Shown here piece by piece: positions 24,843-36,886 of a stretch of 64,000 nt of DNA (the stretch's first letter is position 1; every line of letters begins with the position of its first letter). The stretch comes from an uncultured Nitrospiraceae bacterium. GTDB taxonomy: Bacteria > Nitrospirota > Nitrospiria > Nitrospirales > Nitrospiraceae. The position numbers were made by a program, and so were the translations under genes. Location: NCBI GenBank assembly GCA_963706325.1, contig CAVPLT010000007.1, forward strand, positions 128,001-192,000, read 5' to 3'. The notes beneath the pieces were generated by a model. The model did not search any database, was not told the origin of the DNA, and was given only the letters and a program-made list of their open reading frames with translations.

Positions 24843-26735
24843 ATGCGACCAAGCCAACCTCAGAAGCGCAAGTTTGCCCTTGTTCTACCACGCTGTGCGT
24901 CTTCCAGCTTGAGCGTGGTGAGAAAACCGCAGCACCTTCAATCAATCATCGATGCCTATCCGGTCTCTGTCGTCGTCATCGACGAACAGAAAGTGATCCG
25001 GTATGTCAACGCGGCCTGGCGCCGGTTTGCCGATCAATACGGCTGTCAGGCTCATTCATTTGGAATTGGACTCCCTTATCTACAGGTCTGCCGGAAGTCT
25101 AAAGGTCGGCTCGGCAGTGCCGGACGGCCAATCGCGAAGGGAATTGAGCGTCTGTTTTCAGGGGCTATCGAAGAATTTTCACATGAATATGCATGTGGCC
25201 CGGCCGCAAAACGCCTACGGTTCATGTCGAATGGACGCTGCTTTGCCGAGGGACGAACCCTCGCCCGCCGCGTCCTGTTGATACATCAATCGGTCGCACC
25301 AGCCAAACGCGCCATCGAGTTAATTAAGAGACGGGAGAGCAGCCTCAAAAAGTTGTTGGAGTCGACTCCGTTTGTCCCGTGGGAGGCAGATGCCAAAACG
25401 TGGCGCTTCACGTATGTTGGCCCTCAAGTCCAGGCGTTGCTGGGATATCCTCGTGCGGAGTGGTACGAGCCGAATTTTTGGATTACTCACCTGTATGCCG
25501 AAGATAGTGAGCGGACAATAAAGGCATACCAGGAGCTGGTGACCAACCGATCGCACTACGAACTCAAGTACCGAATGGTGTCGAAATCCGGACGGCCGGT
25601 ATGGTTGCGCAATTTTGTGATCGTGGATGGAAGGCATGGGAAGTCCAGAGTGTTCCGAGGCTTTTTCTGCGATGTGACCGCAGACGCGCAAGTGCAAGAA
25701 CGCGACACCTTGCTGCGTATGTTATCCGAGTCCATCGACGAAATCTTTTGGTTTGTGGGGCTGAACCCTTTACGCTTTATTTATCTCAGCCCCGCCGTCG
25801 AGCGGATCATGGGACGGGAAGCAGGTCAATTCTATAGCCGTGACGATTTTTGGTTACAGTGCATCCATGAAGAAGATCGCCAGCGGGTGCAGGAAGCCTT
25901 CTCCGGTTGGTTGAATGGAACATTTGCTGAGTACAAGGTTGAATTCAGAATCGTATTGCCCGATGGCCGGATTCGGTGGCTTGCTGACCATGGCGCATTG
26001 GTCTATGACGGCGGTGGACGTACAAGCTTTGCGACCGGCGTCGCCAAGGACATCACCGCAGAAAAGCAGAATAAAGAAAATTCGCGTCGGTTAAGTGGCC
26101 AGTTGATTTCTGCCCAAGAAGAGGAGCGCAAACGGATCGCGCGTGAGTTACATGACAATGTGAGTCAGGGATTGAGCCTGCTGACCGTCGAGTTGGAACA
26201 GTTGTGTCGACATCAGGACGCCACGTCACACCAACAGGATGCCCTGGCTGCCATGAAACGGCAACTGAAAGTTCTGTCGTCGGACGTCCATGCATTGTCG
26301 CATCAATTGCATCCAGAAAAACTCAAGCACCTTGGACTGGTGTCCGCTATGCGGGCCATGTGCCGAGATGTAGATCGGGCCGGGCTGAGGGTACATTTCG
26401 CTGACCATAGAATTCCACGCCAGGTGCACGACGATATATCCCTCACCCTCTATCGCGTCATGCAAGAGGGGTTGCATAACGTGAGAAAACACAGCGGGAC
26501 CAGCGAAGTTGAGGCAGACTTGTCGAAAGTCTCAAACGCTTTGATTCTTCGTCTGCGTGACCATGGTAGAGGGTTTGATCGGAGCAAGGCGGAATCCGCC
26601 GGAGGGCTCGGATTATCGAGCATGCGGGAACGGCTCTCCTCGGTAGGGGGATCGCTGCTCATCCAATCTGCTCCCGGTGAAGGCACCCTGCTTGAAGCCA
26701 GGGTGCCATTGTTCGATGATGGGCTCCTTTCGTAA
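24843..26735 (+). CDS. Soluble PAS-PAS-PAS sensor histidine kinase, HisKA_3 (NarX/UhpB/NreB class)
   Basis: Three PAS folds; QEEERKRIARELHD H-box; LYRVMQEGLHNVRKHS; DHGRGF; GLGLSSMRER; no TM helix; start could be GTG 24915. Confidence 0.92.
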   Translation: MRPSQPQKRKFALVLPRCASSSLSVVRKPQHLQSIIDAYPVSVVVIDEQKVIRYVNAAWRRFADQYGCQAHSFGIGLPYLQVCRKSKGRLGSAGRPIAKGIERLFSGAIEEFSHEYACGPAAKRLRFMSNGRCFAEGRTLARRVLLIHQSVAPAKRAIELIKRRESSLKKLLESTPFVPWEADAKTWRFTYVGPQVQALLGYPRAEWYEPNFWITHLYAEDSERTIKAYQELVTNRSHYELKYRMVSKSGRPVWLRNFVIVDGRHGKSRVFRGFFCDVTADAQVQERDTLLRMLSESIDEIFWFVGLNPLRFIYLSPAVERIMGREAGQFYSRDDFWLQCIHEEDRQRVQEAFSGWLNGTFAEYKVEFRIVLPDGRIRWLADHGALVYDGGGRTSFATGVAKDITAEKQNKENSRRLSGQLISAQEEERKRIARELHDNVSQGLSLLTVELEQLCRHQDATSHQQDALAAMKRQLKVLSSDVHALSHQLHPEKLKHLGLVSAMRAMCRDVDRAGLRVHFADHRIPRQVHDDISLTLYRVMQEGLHNVRKHSGTSEVEADLSKVSNALILRLRDHGRGFDRSKAESAGGLGLSSMRERLSSVGGSLLIQSAPGEGTLLEARVPLFDDGLLS

Positions 26736-26742
26736 GGATGAC

Positions 26743-27396
26743 ATGAATAATCTCCGGTTGCTTCTTGCCGACGACCACCTCCTGCTCCTCGATGCGTTCA
26801 AGCGTTTACTTGAGGAACGGTATGACGTCATCGGGACGGCGGTCAACGGTCTGGAGCTGGTTACGTCGGCAATTCGTTTGAAGCCGGACATCATTATCGC
26901 CGATGTGGCCATGCCTCTTCAAAACGGATTGGACGCGGTCAAGCGTGTGAAGAGGTTTCTACCGCATGTCAGAATCATTATCTTGACTGCCATCGAAGAT
27001 CCGGACCTCGCCCAGCGCGCGCTCTCTTCCGGTGTTTCCGGGTATCTGCTGAAGAGCTCCGCAGCCGCGGAATTGTTCGAGGCGCTGCAGGCTGTCTGCT
27101 CTGGCCGACTCTATGTGTCGGGGTCTATTGCCAAGATGCTTGAGGATTGCTCCGCAACCGGCCGAAAAAAACAATCCCCGGAACGAACCCTTAGCGCCCG
27201 TCAGCGTCAGGTCCTGCAATTGTTGGCTGAAGGACATACCATGAAGCAGGCGGCGGCGGAGTTGGGGGTCACGCCGCGTACGATCGCGTTTCACAAATAT
27301 CATGTTATGAAGCTGTTTCGAATGAACTCCAACTCCCAGCTGATCCAGTTGGCTCTGACTGAGCGTCTAATCTCAAATCCCCCTCAATCCTGTTAG
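26743..27396 (+). CDS. NarL/FixJ family DNA-binding response regulator (REC + LuxR-type HTH)
   Basis: LLADDH, DVAMP, GYLLK; LSARQRQVLQLLAEGHTMKQAAAELGVTPRTIAFHK. Confidence 0.93.
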   Translation: MNNLRLLLADDHLLLLDAFKRLLEERYDVIGTAVNGLELVTSAIRLKPDIIIADVAMPLQNGLDAVKRVKRFLPHVRIIILTAIEDPDLAQRALSSGVSGYLLKSSAAAELFEALQAVCSGRLYVSGSIAKMLEDCSATGRKKQSPERTLSARQRQVLQLLAEGHTMKQAAAELGVTPRTIAFHKYHVMKLFRMNSNSQLIQLALTERLISNPPQSC

Positions 27397-27470: not shown

Positions 27471-27927
27471 GTGTGCGCTTCGTTCCGGATTCCTGCTACT
27501 CCGGGGCCGGGAAACAAAGAGGTTCGGCCTCGGCCCAGCGTCGTACTGGCCGACGACAATGCTTTGTTGCTGGATCGAGTAGCAAACCTGCTCGCTGAAG
27601 ATTTCGATGTCGTGGGCCTGGTGTCAAATGGCCGCGATTTGCTGGAGTTTGTCGACCGCTGCCATCCGGACCTGATCGTGTCCGATATTACGATGCCGTA
27701 TGTGGACGGGTTAGAAGTGGCACGCCAACTTCATGAGCGCCGGCGCGACCAGCAAAATCATCTTTCTAACCGTACACGACGATTCGGATTATCTACGGGA
27801 GAGCTTCTTAGTCGGGGCGATGGGATACGTCATTAAAGACAGACTTATTCCAGACCTGCTGCAAGCCATGCATGAAGTCCTGGCAGGACGGCCTTATGTG
27901 TCGGCCTCACCGAATCTACGCCTCTAA
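27471..27927 (+). pseudogene. Receiver-only response regulator with a +1 frameshift near 27735-27738
   Basis: VVLADDN...SDITMPYVDGLEVARQLHE in one frame; AGATSKIIFLTVHDD...GYVIK in the next. Confidence 0.8.
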
Positions 27928-27958: not shown

Positions 27959-27974
27959 CTGTCACTTTTGACAG
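27959..27974. promoter_or_regulatory. Palindromic operator site 5 (CTGTCACTTTTGACAG) upstream of the Rieske-nirK-cytochrome b operon
   Basis: Intergenic; TAGCAT at 27998-28003 (23-nt gap). Confidence 0.8.
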
Positions 27975-28063: not shown

Positions 28064-28612
28064 ATGCCAGATACTCATGAGAACGTCACACATCCAGAGG
28101 CAATCTTTACACCCCAAGGCTCACGACGGCGGTTTTTTCAATGGGTCACGAGGGGAGTGATGGGTATCATTGGATTTGCCGTAGGCATTCCGCTGATCGC
28201 GTATGTCGTGTCTCCTGCCCTCACGCGTCGCGAAAAAACCTGGGTTGATGTCGGAGGCGTGAACGAAGTGTCGGTTGACGAACCATCGCAACTTGAGTAC
28301 ATCGCGACCATTCGTGACGGGTATGTGGAAACCAAGACTCAGAAAGCGATATGGGCGATCAAACAGTCGGACGGACAGGTTACCGCCTTTTCTCCAATGT
28401 GCACGCACCTCGGATGCGGGTATACATGGGATAGAGGGGATAAGCATTTCAAGTGTCCCTGCCACGGCAGTGTGTTCGATGCCTCGGGGCATGTCCTAGC
28501 CGGCCCGGCGCCACGGAGCTTGGACCGGCTGCCGTCCAAAGTGGAGAATGGACGGCTCTTGGTTATCTACAAAGATTTCAAATCAGGCGTCCGGGAACAG
28601 ACCGAATTGTAA
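28064..28612 (+). CDS. qcrA: Rieske 2Fe-2S subunit of a Rieske/cytochrome b complex
   Basis: Tat-like SRRRFF plus TM; CTHLGC and CPCHGS boxes; GPAPRSL. Confidence 0.92.
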   Translation: MPDTHENVTHPEAIFTPQGSRRRFFQWVTRGVMGIIGFAVGIPLIAYVVSPALTRREKTWVDVGGVNEVSVDEPSQLEYIATIRDGYVETKTQKAIWAIKQSDGQVTAFSPMCTHLGCGYTWDRGDKHFKCPCHGSVFDASGHVLAGPAPRSLDRLPSKVENGRLLVIYKDFKSGVREQTEL

Positions 28613-28657
28613 ACAAATGAAATGTTCGAGAGAAAGACAACTCAGGGGGAGGACAAT

Positions 28658-30157
28658 ATGGATGTACGCGCCTTAGAGATCCGGGTCCGGAGGTTCACGG
28701 CAATCCTGGTTGTCGTCTTCGCCGTGGGGATTGGTGATCGATCCGCACTTTCGGCGACGCCCTCTACGAAGGGAGACCAGAAAACCGGAACCACCACGGC
28801 GAAATCCAGCCGTGCTCCCACGTCAATGCTGAAGGCGGTCCTGACCGACGCGCCGCATGTTCCTCCTCCGATCACACGTAAGCAACCTGCGAAGCTCATT
28901 GTGGAATTGGAGGTTACGGAGGTCGATCTTCCCATCTCCGAGGGAGTGGAGTACACGTTCTGGACCTTTGGGGGGAAGGTGCCGGGAAAGTTTATCCGTG
29001 TGCGGCAGGGCGACACGGTGGAGTTTCATCTCATGAACCATCCCGACAGCAGATTTCCGCACAACATTGACCTCCACGCCGTGACCGGTCCGGGAGGTGG
29101 AGCAGCCAGCAGCAATACGGCACCAGGGCGCCAGACGCAGTTCACCTTTCAGGCCCTCAACCCCGGCCTCTATGTCTATCACTGCGCGACCGCACCGGTC
29201 GGTGAACATGTGGCCAATGGAATGTATGGCCTGATTTTAGTCGAACCGACAGCGGGGTTGGCTCCGGTCGACCGGGAATACTATGTGCTCCAAAGCGATT
29301 TCTACACCGCGGGAAATTATCGCGAGCAGGGACACCAGGCCTTTGATATGACCAAAGCCATCGATGAACATGCGACCTATGTCGTATTTAACGGGGCCGA
29401 AGGAGCGTTGCTGGGCGAACATGCGCTCAAGGCCAAGGTTGGAGAGCGTGTACGTCTGTTCGTCGGGAACGGCGGACCGAACCTCGTGTCGAGCTTTCAT
29501 GTGATCGGCGAAATCTTCGATCGCGTATACCCCGAAGCCGGAATGCGTCCTCAGGAACAGGTCCAAACGACGCTTGTTCCAGCGGGCGGCGCTGCCATTG
29601 TCGAGTTCAAGGTTGAGGTTCCCGGCTCCTATAAGCTGGTGGATCACTCTATTTTGCGCGCGTTCAATAAAGGCGCCCTGGGAGAGCTAAAGGTCGAAGG
29701 GCCGGAGAACACATCGGTGTACTCAGGTAAGCAGGTCGAATCTGATTACAATGCGGCGAAATCCCTTGGCGTCCACACGGCGGCATCAATGACCCCTAAA
29801 GCGCCTCCCACGGATGATCCATCTGCACGTCTCGTTGCAGGGGGGACCCTGTACAAGACCTATTGCATGGGGTGTCATCAGGCAGAAGGACAGGGACTGC
29901 AAGGAACGTTTCCGCCGCTAGCGAAGTCGGACTACTTGACGGACAAGTCACGCGCAATCGAAGCGATCGTCAATGGTCTGACCGGGGGCATCGATGTGAA
30001 TGGGCAGCGCTACAACGGAGTCATGCCGCCAATGGGGCATCTGAAGGACGATCAGATCGCCGACATCTTGAGCTACGTTCGCCACTCGTGGGGAAATGAC
30101 GGAGAGGCCGTGTCGGCGGCGGAGGTGGCAGCGGTGCGGGCGAAAACCTCGCATTGA
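28658..30157 (+). CDS. nirK: Copper-containing nitrite reductase with C-terminal cytochrome c domain
   Basis: [23 protein letters not shown] and LVDHS Cu-ligand motifs; C-terminal CMGCH with MPPM. Confidence 0.95.
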
Positions 30158-30233
30158 GGCGTGGTCTTTTCTCGGGTCATGCTGAGGAGAGTGTTGAGGG
30201 GCGGAGAAACGACCGGCATCCCGGAGGGTCACG

Positions 30234-31559
30234 ATGGCGTCCCGCATATACGAGTGGTTTGACAGCCGCTTGAACTTGAAAGCGATGCAGAAAACGCTGC
30301 TGGACGAAGCGATTCCCGGCGGCGCCAGCTGGATCTATGTGTTCGGGTCTGCCACGCTCTTTATCTTCGGGCTCCAAGCCCTCACCGGGATGTTTCTGGC
30401 CCTCTATTACGCTCCGACGCCAGACCACGCGTATGACAGCGTGCAATTCATCGAAAACCAGGTGACATTCGGCTGGTTCGTGCGCGGCCTGCACCACTGG
30501 GGCGCCTCGGGGATGATCATTGCCGTGGGTCTGCACATGCTGCAAGTTTTCTTGTACGGTGCCTACAAACCGCCGCGCGAACTGATGTGGATGGTGGGCG
30601 TGGTGTTGCTGCTGATCGTCCTGGCCTTTGCGTTCACCGGTTATCTCTTGCCTTGGGACCAGACTGCCTACTGGGCCACGCAGGTCGGGATCAACATGGT
30701 CGGCACGGTGCCCCTGGTGGGTGATGTGCTCATTAAAGTGTTGCGCGGCGGCGAGACGCTGGGGATGCTCACCCTTTCACGGTTTTTTGCCGTGCATGTC
30801 TTGTTTCTTCCGGCGGTGATCGTCACAGGAATTGCGCTCCACCTGATCATACTCCGGCTGGTGGGACCGGCCGGTCCGTGGGATGAACGGAAAGCGGCGT
30901 CGCGCCGTGAAACTTTCTACCCCCGGCAGGTCTATATGGACGCCGTGGTGATGCTCTGTGTCTTTCTTGGGTTGGCGGCATTGGCGACGTGGGCGCCGTT
31001 CCCGCTAGCGGATAGGGCCAATCCGTCCGACACCAGCTTCGTGCCGGTGCCGGAATGGTACTTTCTCTTTTACTATGAGCTACTCAAACACATTCACGGA
31101 CCCTTTGAGCCTTTGGTCACATGGGTCTTGCCGATCGTGTTCGTGCTCATTGTCCTCTTCTGGCCATTGCTCGATTGGAAGAAAACAGTCCGGGCTCCGG
31201 CGTCGCGTCCCATCGGAATGGCGCTCGGCGTTGTGTTTCTGCTGATTGTGTTCTCACTGCTGGGCGTATCCTTGAAAAATCTGTACGCGGTGAAGCGCGT
31301 GGATCCAGGGATAGCGCACGGCAAGGCGCTCTATACCCAGTTCGGCTGTGCGGGGTGCCATCGGATTCATGGGGAGGGCGGGGCCTTGGCGCCGGACTTG
31401 TCCTACGTTGGTGATGTGCGTCCCGATCGCGAATGGCACGTGACACACTTGCGCGATCCCCAGGCTGTTTCACCCGGAAGCATCATGCCGAAGTTTCCTC
31501 TGACAGAGCCGGAATTGAATGACCTGACAAGCTATATGCTGAGTCTTAGACGCTCTTGA
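30234..31559 (+). CDS. qcrB: Cytochrome b (b6-like plus subunit IV) fused to a C-terminal c-type cytochrome
   Basis: RGLHHWGAS, LHMLQVF, FTGYLLPWDQ, FFAVHVLFLP, LHL, PEWYF; C-terminal CAGCH...GSIMP. Confidence 0.92.
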   Translation: MASRIYEWFDSRLNLKAMQKTLLDEAIPGGASWIYVFGSATLFIFGLQALTGMFLALYYAPTPDHAYDSVQFIENQVTFGWFVRGLHHWGASGMIIAVGLHMLQVFLYGAYKPPRELMWMVGVVLLLIVLAFAFTGYLLPWDQTAYWATQVGINMVGTVPLVGDVLIKVLRGGETLGMLTLSRFFAVHVLFLPAVIVTGIALHLIILRLVGPAGPWDERKAASRRETFYPRQVYMDAVVMLCVFLGLAALATWAPFPLADRANPSDTSFVPVPEWYFLFYYELLKHIHGPFEPLVTWVLPIVFVLIVLFWPLLDWKKTVRAPASRPIGMALGVVFLLIVFSLLGVSLKNLYAVKRVDPGIAHGKALYTQFGCAGCHRIHGEGGALAPDLSYVGDVRPDREWHVTHLRDPQAVSPGSIMPKFPLTEPELNDLTSYMLSLRRS

Positions 31560-35657: not shown

Positions 35658-36554
35658 CTATTTCAGGGCTTCGGCGCCTCCCACGATATCCATGAGTTCC
35701 CTGGTGATCGCTGCCTGCCTGGTCTTGTTGTAGTAAATGGTCAATTTTTTAATCAGTTCGCCGGCGTTCCGCGTTGCGCCGTCCATGGCCGCCATACGGG
35801 CACCTTGTTCGGCGGCGGTTGATTCCAGCAGAATGCGATACGATTGGACGTGGAAATTGCGGTGCAGGAGTTCGTTCAACAACTCGTCTTCACCCGGCTC
35901 GTATAGGTAGCCGCCAGGCATGGTTTCGGTAGCTTGATCAAGATCCTTTGGGTCGGAAATCTCCACGAGCCAGTCGATCGGCAGGAGCTTTTCGACGACG
36001 ACCCGTTGCTGAAGGGCTGATTTGAATTCATTGTAAATGACATAGACCGCATCGATTCGTCCTGCGATATAGTCATCGACGGCTTGCAGTTCGGAACCCA
36101 GCAGCATCCCGTGCTCAAAGGTCAACTTGTCGAAGAGGTCGACGACCTCTCGGCGCACCTTCCAGGCGCGTCGTCGAAAAAAATCACGGCCTTTCCGGCC
36201 GACGACCGCCACCTCGACCTGCGCGCCGTGGGCTTCAAATTCTTTCAACGTCGCGGCCGCCGTGCGGAGAATGTTGGAGTTGAAGGCCCCGCACAATCCA
36301 CGGTCACTTGTGATGACGGCAATCACGATGCGGTTGCCCTCTCGCTTCCGGAGCAGGGGATGCGCCTCTCGGTTCACACGCCGGCTGAGGTTGCGGATGG
36401 TATCCCGCATCTTGTAGGCGTAAGGCCGCGCGGCGAGAATGCGGTCCTGCGTGCGCTTGAGTTTCGCCGCCGCCACCATTTTCATGGCTTTCGTGATTTT
36501 CTGGGTTTTCTTAACTGAGGCGATCTTCCGTCGGACGGATTGCAGGCTAGGCAT
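35658..36554 (-). CDS. atpG: F1 ATP synthase gamma subunit, stand-alone
   Basis: RRKIASVKKTQKITKAMKMVAAAK, TSDRGLCGAFN, AEQGARMAAMDGATRNA, YNKTRQAAITRELMDIVGGAEAL. Confidence 0.96.
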   Translation of the reverse strand: MPSLQSVRRKIASVKKTQKITKAMKMVAAAKLKRTQDRILAARPYAYKMRDTIRNLSRRVNREAHPLLRKREGNRIVIAVITSDRGLCGAFNSNILRTAAATLKEFEAHGAQVEVAVVGRKGRDFFRRRAWKVRREVVDLFDKLTFEHGMLLGSELQAVDDYIAGRIDAVYVIYNEFKSALQQRVVVEKLLPIDWLVEISDPKDLDQATETMPGGYLYEPGEDELLNELLHRNFHVQSYRILLESTAAEQGARMAAMDGATRNAGELIKKLTIYYNKTRQAAITRELMDIVGGAEALK

Positions 36555-36870: not shown

Positions 36871-36886
36871 CTGTAACTTTTGACAG
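36871..36886. promoter_or_regulatory. Palindromic operator site 6 (CTGTAACTTTTGACAG) between divergent atpG and ppk2
   Basis: Intergenic; TATAAC at 36910-36915 (23-nt gap). Confidence 0.8.

Follow-up and report, generated by a model that had tools for sequence, protein, structure and literature searches.

A copper nitrite reductase gene nested between the Rieske and cytochrome b genes of a second complex III in Nitrospiraceae: a candidate quinol-to-nitrite electron line

Introduction

In Nitrospira, the ONR-petBC cluster places a Rieske/cytochrome b pair beside a periplasmic octaheme nitrite reductase (ONR), and coupling to the quinone pool has been proposed for it (PMC6606698, PMC12342949). 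Here we analyze an arrangement from the same organism family, a qcrA-nirK-qcrB operon in which the gene for a copper nitrite reductase (NirK) lies between the genes for a Rieske protein and a cytochrome b. The operon is located in a 64,000-nucleotide (nt) stretch of an uncultured Nitrospiraceae genome (GenBank contig CAVPLT010000007.1, positions 128,001 to 192,000, here G000:C7:128001-192000; genome of 4.2 Mb, 96% complete), and "the window" refers to that whole stretch throughout. Both systems are known from genes; however, ONR makes ammonium for assimilation (PMC6606698, PMC12342949), whereas the acceptor in the window is an enzyme forming nitric oxide (NO) and encoded between two subunit genes. 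The ONR-associated cytochrome b is a distant paralog of that in the window (33-37% identity), with no fused heme c.

The N. moscoviensis complex CIII_2, which comprises a Rieske protein, a fused cytochrome b/c and a diheme cytochrome c, has the same two subunits and the same fused b/c architecture as the window operon; however, no nirK is described for the CIII_2 cluster in the available text (PMC6606698), and we identify the window complex with CIII_2 by architecture rather than by sequence comparison. A haloarchaeal Rieske/cytochrome b complex (NarB/NarC) is likewise encoded with a nitrogen-oxide reductase, NarGH, and Q-cycle-coupled reduction has been proposed for it, but that system is archaeal, its reductase is a molybdenum nitrate reductase, its cytochrome b belongs to a different clade and no NirK is described in it (PMC3509893). 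The NirK of the window resembles RpNiR (PDB 3ziy) and the PhNiR-type enzymes (2zoo), with which it shares the domain order, all copper and heme ligands and the linker tyrosine.

What NirK does in nitrite-oxidizing Nitrospira, and what donates its electrons, is stated to be unresolved (PMC6606698), and for heme c-tethered NirKs a complex III or membrane heme c donor has been raised as a possibility only, the in vivo donor being left open (PMC13324648). The operon described here names a concrete donor chain for both questions. In the literature that we searched, which included PMC7522533, PMC12516955, PMC12542776, PMC9714041, PMC8756737, PMC5600118 and PMC6349771, with subscription papers mostly outside its scope, we came across no description of a Rieske/cytochrome b operon with nirK within it or fused to it. 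We consider it somewhat better than an even chance that the operon encodes a co-expressed quinol-to-nitrite electron line that makes NO through transient contacts between its parts.

Results and discussion

Both flanking genes accompany nirK in most of its relatives within the family, a conservation that the initial annotation of the window had named as the outcome to look for in a synteny search. Among 371 Nitrospiraceae genomes, 22 carry the window-type NirK (counting the window genome and one frameshifted copy); both flanks are present in 18 of these, one flank falls at a contig end in three, and neither is present in one. A second set, of 80 genome loci of window-type NirK, includes 13 from Nitrospiraceae/Nitrospirota, all of which have an upstream Rieske gene, a downstream cytochrome b gene or both (10 both, 3 cut by a contig end). 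By contrast, Rieske or cytochrome b neighbors occur in none of the 67 loci of such RpNiR/PhNiR-type NirKs outside Nitrospiraceae, 51 of which have at least 2 kb visible on both sides. The 79 metagenome loci, many of them near-identical, divide into 25 with both flanks, 13 with one flank at a contig end, one with the small cytochrome gene described below only, and 40 with neither. Conserved co-location with a nitrogen-oxide reductase, by which dedicated Rieske/cytochrome b complexes are recognized, is therefore present here.

Carriers are concentrated in two genera (five of the six genomes of g19, and 13 genomes in g39), and the window's own genus, in which 38 others were scored, has no further carrier. 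The named relatives of the window's genes belong to Nitrospira or Nitrospiraceae; a 72%-identical protein, P0059, is attributed by its source to Nitrospira sp. KM1. Kin are not independent, and the carrier counts reflect one insertion that was retained while NirK diverged to ~70% identity. This conservation, which includes two single-contig genomes, rules out a chance insertion or misassembly of the nested nirK. Several frameshifts run across all three operon genes in loci L035, L041, L058 and L324, which suggests sequencing error in those assemblies.

The open reading frame (ORF) coordinates (Table 1) bear out the gene order given in the initial annotation, with its gaps of 45 and 76 nt, and the cofactor motifs that it had called intact are all present. 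The 45-nt gap depends on the nirK start at ATG 28658, which is preceded by a GGAGG ribosome site; an alternative in-frame start at ATG 28622 would leave a gap of 9 nt.

Table 1. Features of the qcrA-nirK-qcrB locus and its upstream region (window coordinates; aa, amino acids).
Feature	Position	Strand	Description
PAS/HisKA_3 sensor kinase and LuxR/NarL-type response regulator	24843..27396	+	Pfam; regulator gene 26677-27396
Operator, 16-bp palindrome CTGTCA-N4-TGACAG	27959..27974	.	~105 nt before the Rieske start
qcrA, Rieske [2Fe-2S] subunit, S..F type	28064..28612	+	182 aa; twin-arginine signal, one membrane helix; Pfam Rieske
nirK, three-domain copper nitrite reductase with C-terminal heme c (RpNiR type)	28658..30157	+	TIGR02376, PDB 3ziy match
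nirK-qcrB spacer	30158..30233	+	76 nt; slot of the ~117-aa exported monoheme cytochrome c gene in most homologous operons
qcrBC, cytochrome b (b6-like part and subunit IV, PEWY) with C-terminal class I heme c	30234..31559	+	441 aa

The operon proteins match the Pfam families Rieske, Cytochrome_B, Cytochrom_B_C and Cytochrom_C. QcrA, read from its sequence, has a Rieske box with ligands C113/H115/C131/H134 and disulfide cysteines C118/C133, and a Tat-type anchor with the twin-arginine motif S-RRRFF. NirK scores 356 bits against TIGR02376 (cut-off 296) and 617 bits against PDB 3ziy, over residues 58-496, which covers its whole mature length. Its type 1 copper ligands (H135/C176/H184/M189), type 2 copper ligands (H140/H175/H330), catalytic residues (D138/H281) and heme ligands (C403/C406/H407/M456) are invariant among 84 homologs, and the linker residue Y364, which aligns to Tyr323 of RpNiR, is conserved in at least 90% of them. 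The sole hydrophobic stretch of NirK is its N-terminal signal, and a membrane anchor is absent.

In QcrB, the residues H87/H101/H188/H203, the PEWY motif at 273-276, the CxxCH motif at 372-376 and M418 are invariant across 22 aligned operon copies. Four heme b histidines, a PEWY Qo motif and a fused class I cytochrome c place the protein in the PEWY-cyt c clade of Rieske/cytochrome b complexes defined in PMC4122944. In place of the CxGG cysteine and split cytochrome b of b6f/b6c complexes, all 70 aligned QcrB sequences have YVFGS, with no cysteine for heme ci, in a single chain. Helices A-G followed by the heme c domain would place that domain in the periplasm, and the motifs are compatible with Q-cycle proton translocation by the predicted Rieske/cytochrome b complex.

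Trees were made quickly with IQ-TREE or FastTree and carry SH-type support only; the protein trees omit frameshifted loci without a full ORF, and in the NirK tree the distant sequences are represented by a random draw of 45 of 118 rows. The nested NirK sequences form one clade (support 100, 39 rows), itself nested among Proteobacteria/Myxococcota sequences. The nested QcrB sequences also form one clade (support 97-99, 24 rows), whose sister group consists of fused b/c copies from the window's genus that have no nirK, among them the window genome's own copy on contig C1. In phylogenetic terms, these relationships show that nirK entered the second Nitrospira complex III operon once, and the predicted complex is the ordinary second one of Nitrospira, with nirK added to its operon, rather than a novel complex. 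Because the window QcrB is closer to the g19 copies (93% identity) than to the resident copy (74%), and because the DNA match to loci L031 and L141, which spans the operon, ends at the operon stop, the window genome probably acquired the nested operon as a unit. The nested operon is an extra copy in the window genome and in G094. In eight loci (L221-L226, L331 and L368), an accessory fused b/c complex III paralog lies directly behind or near a pyridine nucleotide-disulfide oxidoreductase gene; transketolase-like genes are close by, and nirK follows the paralog in some cases and not in others.

A second NirK lineage, with a lipoprotein signal and no heme c, occurs in 8 of the 371 family genomes. 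Its gene directly follows qcrA-qcrB in five of them (G022, G281, G296, G327 and G400), is fused in frame to qcrB in G128 (L333:2107-3780), is preceded by a qcrB remnant only in G082, and has no partner within 12 kb in G404; three genomes of another family (G475, G479 and G514) have the same qcrA-qcrB-nirK order. Both the NirK of this second recruitment and its paralogous qcrAB partners fall outside the nested clades in the trees. Gene order and phylogeny together show that NirK was tied to this type of predicted complex twice, independently.

A search for long QcrB homologs identified full-length cytochrome b-heme c-NirK fusions in four clusters (P0124-P0127; 784-817 aa, 64-74% mutual identity) with 37, 3, 1 and 5 members, respectively (46 sequences, some partial), as well as partial fusions P0123 and P0245. 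The full-length fusions have every heme and copper motif intact, and the partial ones keep the motifs that they span, save for one catalytic-His motif variant in P0245. A low-complexity linker takes the place of the NirK signal peptide. The QcrB halves occupy two positions in the tree, which suggests repeated fusion or a recombination. We rejected read-through as a source of these proteins, since 11 of 15 listed P0124-cluster members are 784 aa long on separate contigs and the four clusters share the fusion; we also rejected as fusions the open frames of 844-860 codons in qcrB-nirK loci, in which stops separate qcrB from nirK. A search with P0124 among protein representatives (top 150, no best stretch covering both halves) is uninformative on fusions elsewhere, and a predicted structure of P0124 (17-row alignment) was discarded at a mean predicted local distance difference test score of 45. 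Databases annotate P0124-P0127, P0245 and L333 only as one half or the other, and a single-chain cytochrome b-heme c-NirK is an architecture that we did not find in the literature searched.

We take the fusions as evidence that the heme c of QcrB can serve a NirK directly, though not as proof of a stable complex for the window's NirK. They would provide a single-gene model of transfer from complex III to NirK, and they pose a structural puzzle, namely a trimer-forming domain (NirK is trimeric) on a dimer-forming membrane protein (cytochrome b complexes are dimeric). It is possible, if slightly doubtful, that nitrite-oxidizing Nitrospiraceae twice built a proton-pumping, NO-forming quinol:nitrite oxidoreductase, with the single-chain fusion, a membrane-integral respiratory enzyme, as its end point and the window operon as its three-gene form.

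The spacer between nirK and qcrB bears on how electrons would reach NirK. In 14 of the 19 family genomes in which this junction is visible, it holds a gene for an exported monoheme cytochrome c of ~117 aa, and the same gene is present at 16 of 32 such junctions in metagenome loci, many of them redundant. It is missing in the window copy and in several separate branches, and the window genome encodes a homolog with 60% identity beside its cbb3-type oxidase. This distribution shows that the small predicted cytochrome c is dispensable or replaceable. The cbb3-type locus itself (G000:C4:978320-981759, L286) encodes a subunit I joined to FixO and a further two hemes, interrupted by a frameshift, and then the small cytochrome c homolog.

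The initial annotation had proposed a hard-wired chain without a diffusible carrier. As a stable complex, such a chain would have a NirK trimer bound to the Rieske/cytochrome b complex and reduced directly from the fused heme c. The single-chain fusions indicate that direct tethering is viable, and the small cytochrome c is missing in several branches, the window copy included; however, a separate mobile carrier is kept in most copies, the window NirK lacks a membrane anchor and carries its own heme c, and a trimeric NirK would be mismatched in symmetry with a dimeric cytochrome b complex. We consider a stable complex of this kind improbable, and the comparison does not support the absence of a diffusible carrier as a general rule.

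In the electron line that we favor, the three genes would form one co-expressed unit, and the Rieske/cytochrome b complex would oxidize membrane quinol, probably by a Q cycle with proton pumping. The high-potential electron would pass from the fused heme c of QcrB to the heme c of NirK and on to the copper centers, and NirK would reduce nitrite to NO. The last hop would most likely be made through transient contacts, via the small exported cytochrome c where one is encoded; in copies like that of the window, it would run directly from heme c to heme c or via another periplasmic cytochrome c. The operon may serve to drain electrons and so keep the quinone pool turning over when oxygen is scarce; as no NO reductase was found, the NO would be released.

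Published potentials allow this direction of flow to be estimated. The methyl-plastoquinone of Nitrospira has a potential of +57 to +59 mV (PMC12324825), the S..F type of Rieske protein correlates with 200-230 mV (PMC3509893), and the heme, type 1 and type 2 copper centers of RpNiR lie at +290, +266 and +255 mV (PMC13324648). Among the nested Rieske copies, 18 of 24 are of the S..F type and 6 of 24 are S..Y. With these borrowed values, flow from quinol to the NirK heme would be downhill.

The statement in the initial annotation that the window holds no NO reductase agrees with our searches: none was detected among 30 scanned window proteins (most of the long window ORFs, though not all), and a PF00115 search of the genome identified no NO reductase, its sole match being the frameshifted cbb3-type subunit followed by FixO. 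In a set of five other carriers, PF00115 was above cut-off in none. Searches of the window genome for Hcp and globins were empty, with working controls, and NirA is present. There is no octaheme gene at the locus, and the octaheme protein of L231 as query had no match in the genome, which sets the window apart from ONR-petBC. Since these searches identified neither an NO reductase nor Hcp or a globin, NO would likely be released. If this is true, nitrite oxidizers without a detectable NO reductase would be able to conserve energy on a route that leads from stored carbon to NO, and the operon would bear on NO release from nitrifying communities.

The same negative searches of the window genome would also fit the opposite direction, in which NirK oxidizes NO to nitrite and passes the electrons to the complex running backwards, serving NO scavenging and reverse electron transport. 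For ammonia oxidizers, a NirK that oxidizes NO has been proposed. Reverse operation of a complex III is described for Nitrospira (PMC12324825). However, at an estimated 200-230 mV the Rieske center has a lower potential than the NirK centers of the RpNiR homolog, which favors forward flow, and a separate core complex III is present; we regard reverse use as very unlikely.

Several observations weigh against an electron line built for NirK. In most Nitrospiraceae this complex is encoded with no nirK (the sister clade, 30 rows), and the closed genomes G135 and G137 have no fused b/c complex III other than that of the nested operon, which they encode along with the core complex III and a distant third paralog. 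The nested complex may thus serve other acceptors too; G114 is like these two in having only the nested fused b/c copy, plus a core complex III. NirK can leave the operon, as in G098, where nirK has no Rieske or cytochrome b gene within 17 kb, and the metagenome loci L154 and L215 (~74% identical, N-terminal part) lack the upstream Rieske gene. The NirK halves of the fusions belong to the second lineage, not to that of the window. Of the 17 clade-diagnostic positions of QcrB, just two are in the heme c domain; convergent surface changes in that domain were not found, and there is no clear sign of a remodeled docking face. The separate cytochrome c at most visible junctions, the absence of the operator from most deeper-branching copies (discussed below), and a sensor kinase with nothing to point to an oxygen response count on the same side.

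These points would also fit a simpler arrangement, in which a general forward complex III feeds a periplasmic cytochrome c pool from which NirK draws, nirK being in the operon for shared regulation. In the genus, orthologous qcrAB pairs normally lack nirK and lie beside other redox genes, two closed genomes have no fused b/c copy but the nested one, and a soluble cytochrome c is encoded at most junctions, with its homolog beside the cbb3-type oxidase; the usual donors of NirK are soluble carriers fed by bc1 (PMC13324648). However, two independent recruitments and in-frame QcrB-NirK fusions are hard to explain by regulation alone, and the window genome keeps a nirK-free copy and added the nested operon as a second. 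We judge this arrangement rather unlikely, and prefer the quinol-to-nitrite line. The word "dedicated" in the initial annotation fits only in part, given the orthology of the complex to an ordinary second Nitrospira complex III and its status as sole fused b/c copy in two closed genomes.

Regulatory surroundings and neighboring genes

The palindrome TGTCA-N4-TGACA (at most one mismatch) occurs at seven sites in the window (10179, 17090, 22448, 27391, 27960, 36872 and 61954) vs. 1.7 ± 1.3 expected, and seven was reached in none of 100 shuffles. The site at 27960, upstream of qcrA, is the fifth, in agreement with its earlier description as operator site 5. Across the genome there are 25 sites, 14 of which lie inside C7:138-238 kb, an island of ~100 kb. 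In L031, L032, L033 and L141, a matching palindrome precedes the Rieske gene by 104-111 nt; in most deeper-branching operon copies, which lack the operator, qcrA directly follows a peptidase gene. The geometry of the palindrome, CTGT-N8-ACAG, resembles that of LuxR-family boxes. A copy of the operator at 27391 stands directly behind the LuxR/NarL-type regulator gene, and this regulator together with its PAS/HisKA_3 kinase is a candidate reader of the operator. The operator also precedes ppk2 and, downstream of it, the genes fba (aldolase), xfp (phosphoketolase) and that for glycogen phosphorylase, an arrangement that would fit a low-oxygen, storage-carbon program.

A scan of the locus for promoters and terminators identified promoter-like sites no more often than expected by chance, and a weak five-pair hairpin at 30147-30159, over the nirK stop, was not taken as a terminator. 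The genes nirV and sco/senC are absent from the operon itself (28064-31559; only the locus, not the genome, was searched for them). One nucleotide past qcrB, an ORF at 31561-32397 matches only the C-terminal domain of glucose-6-phosphate dehydrogenase and is probably a gene remnant at the operon edge. A lone ATP synthase gamma subunit gene (35658-36554, minus strand) is divergent from ppk2 and shares the operator at 36872. Between the regulator gene and the operator, a receiver-only response regulator gene (27471-27920) has a frameshift near 27750, which is either a mutation or an assembly error.

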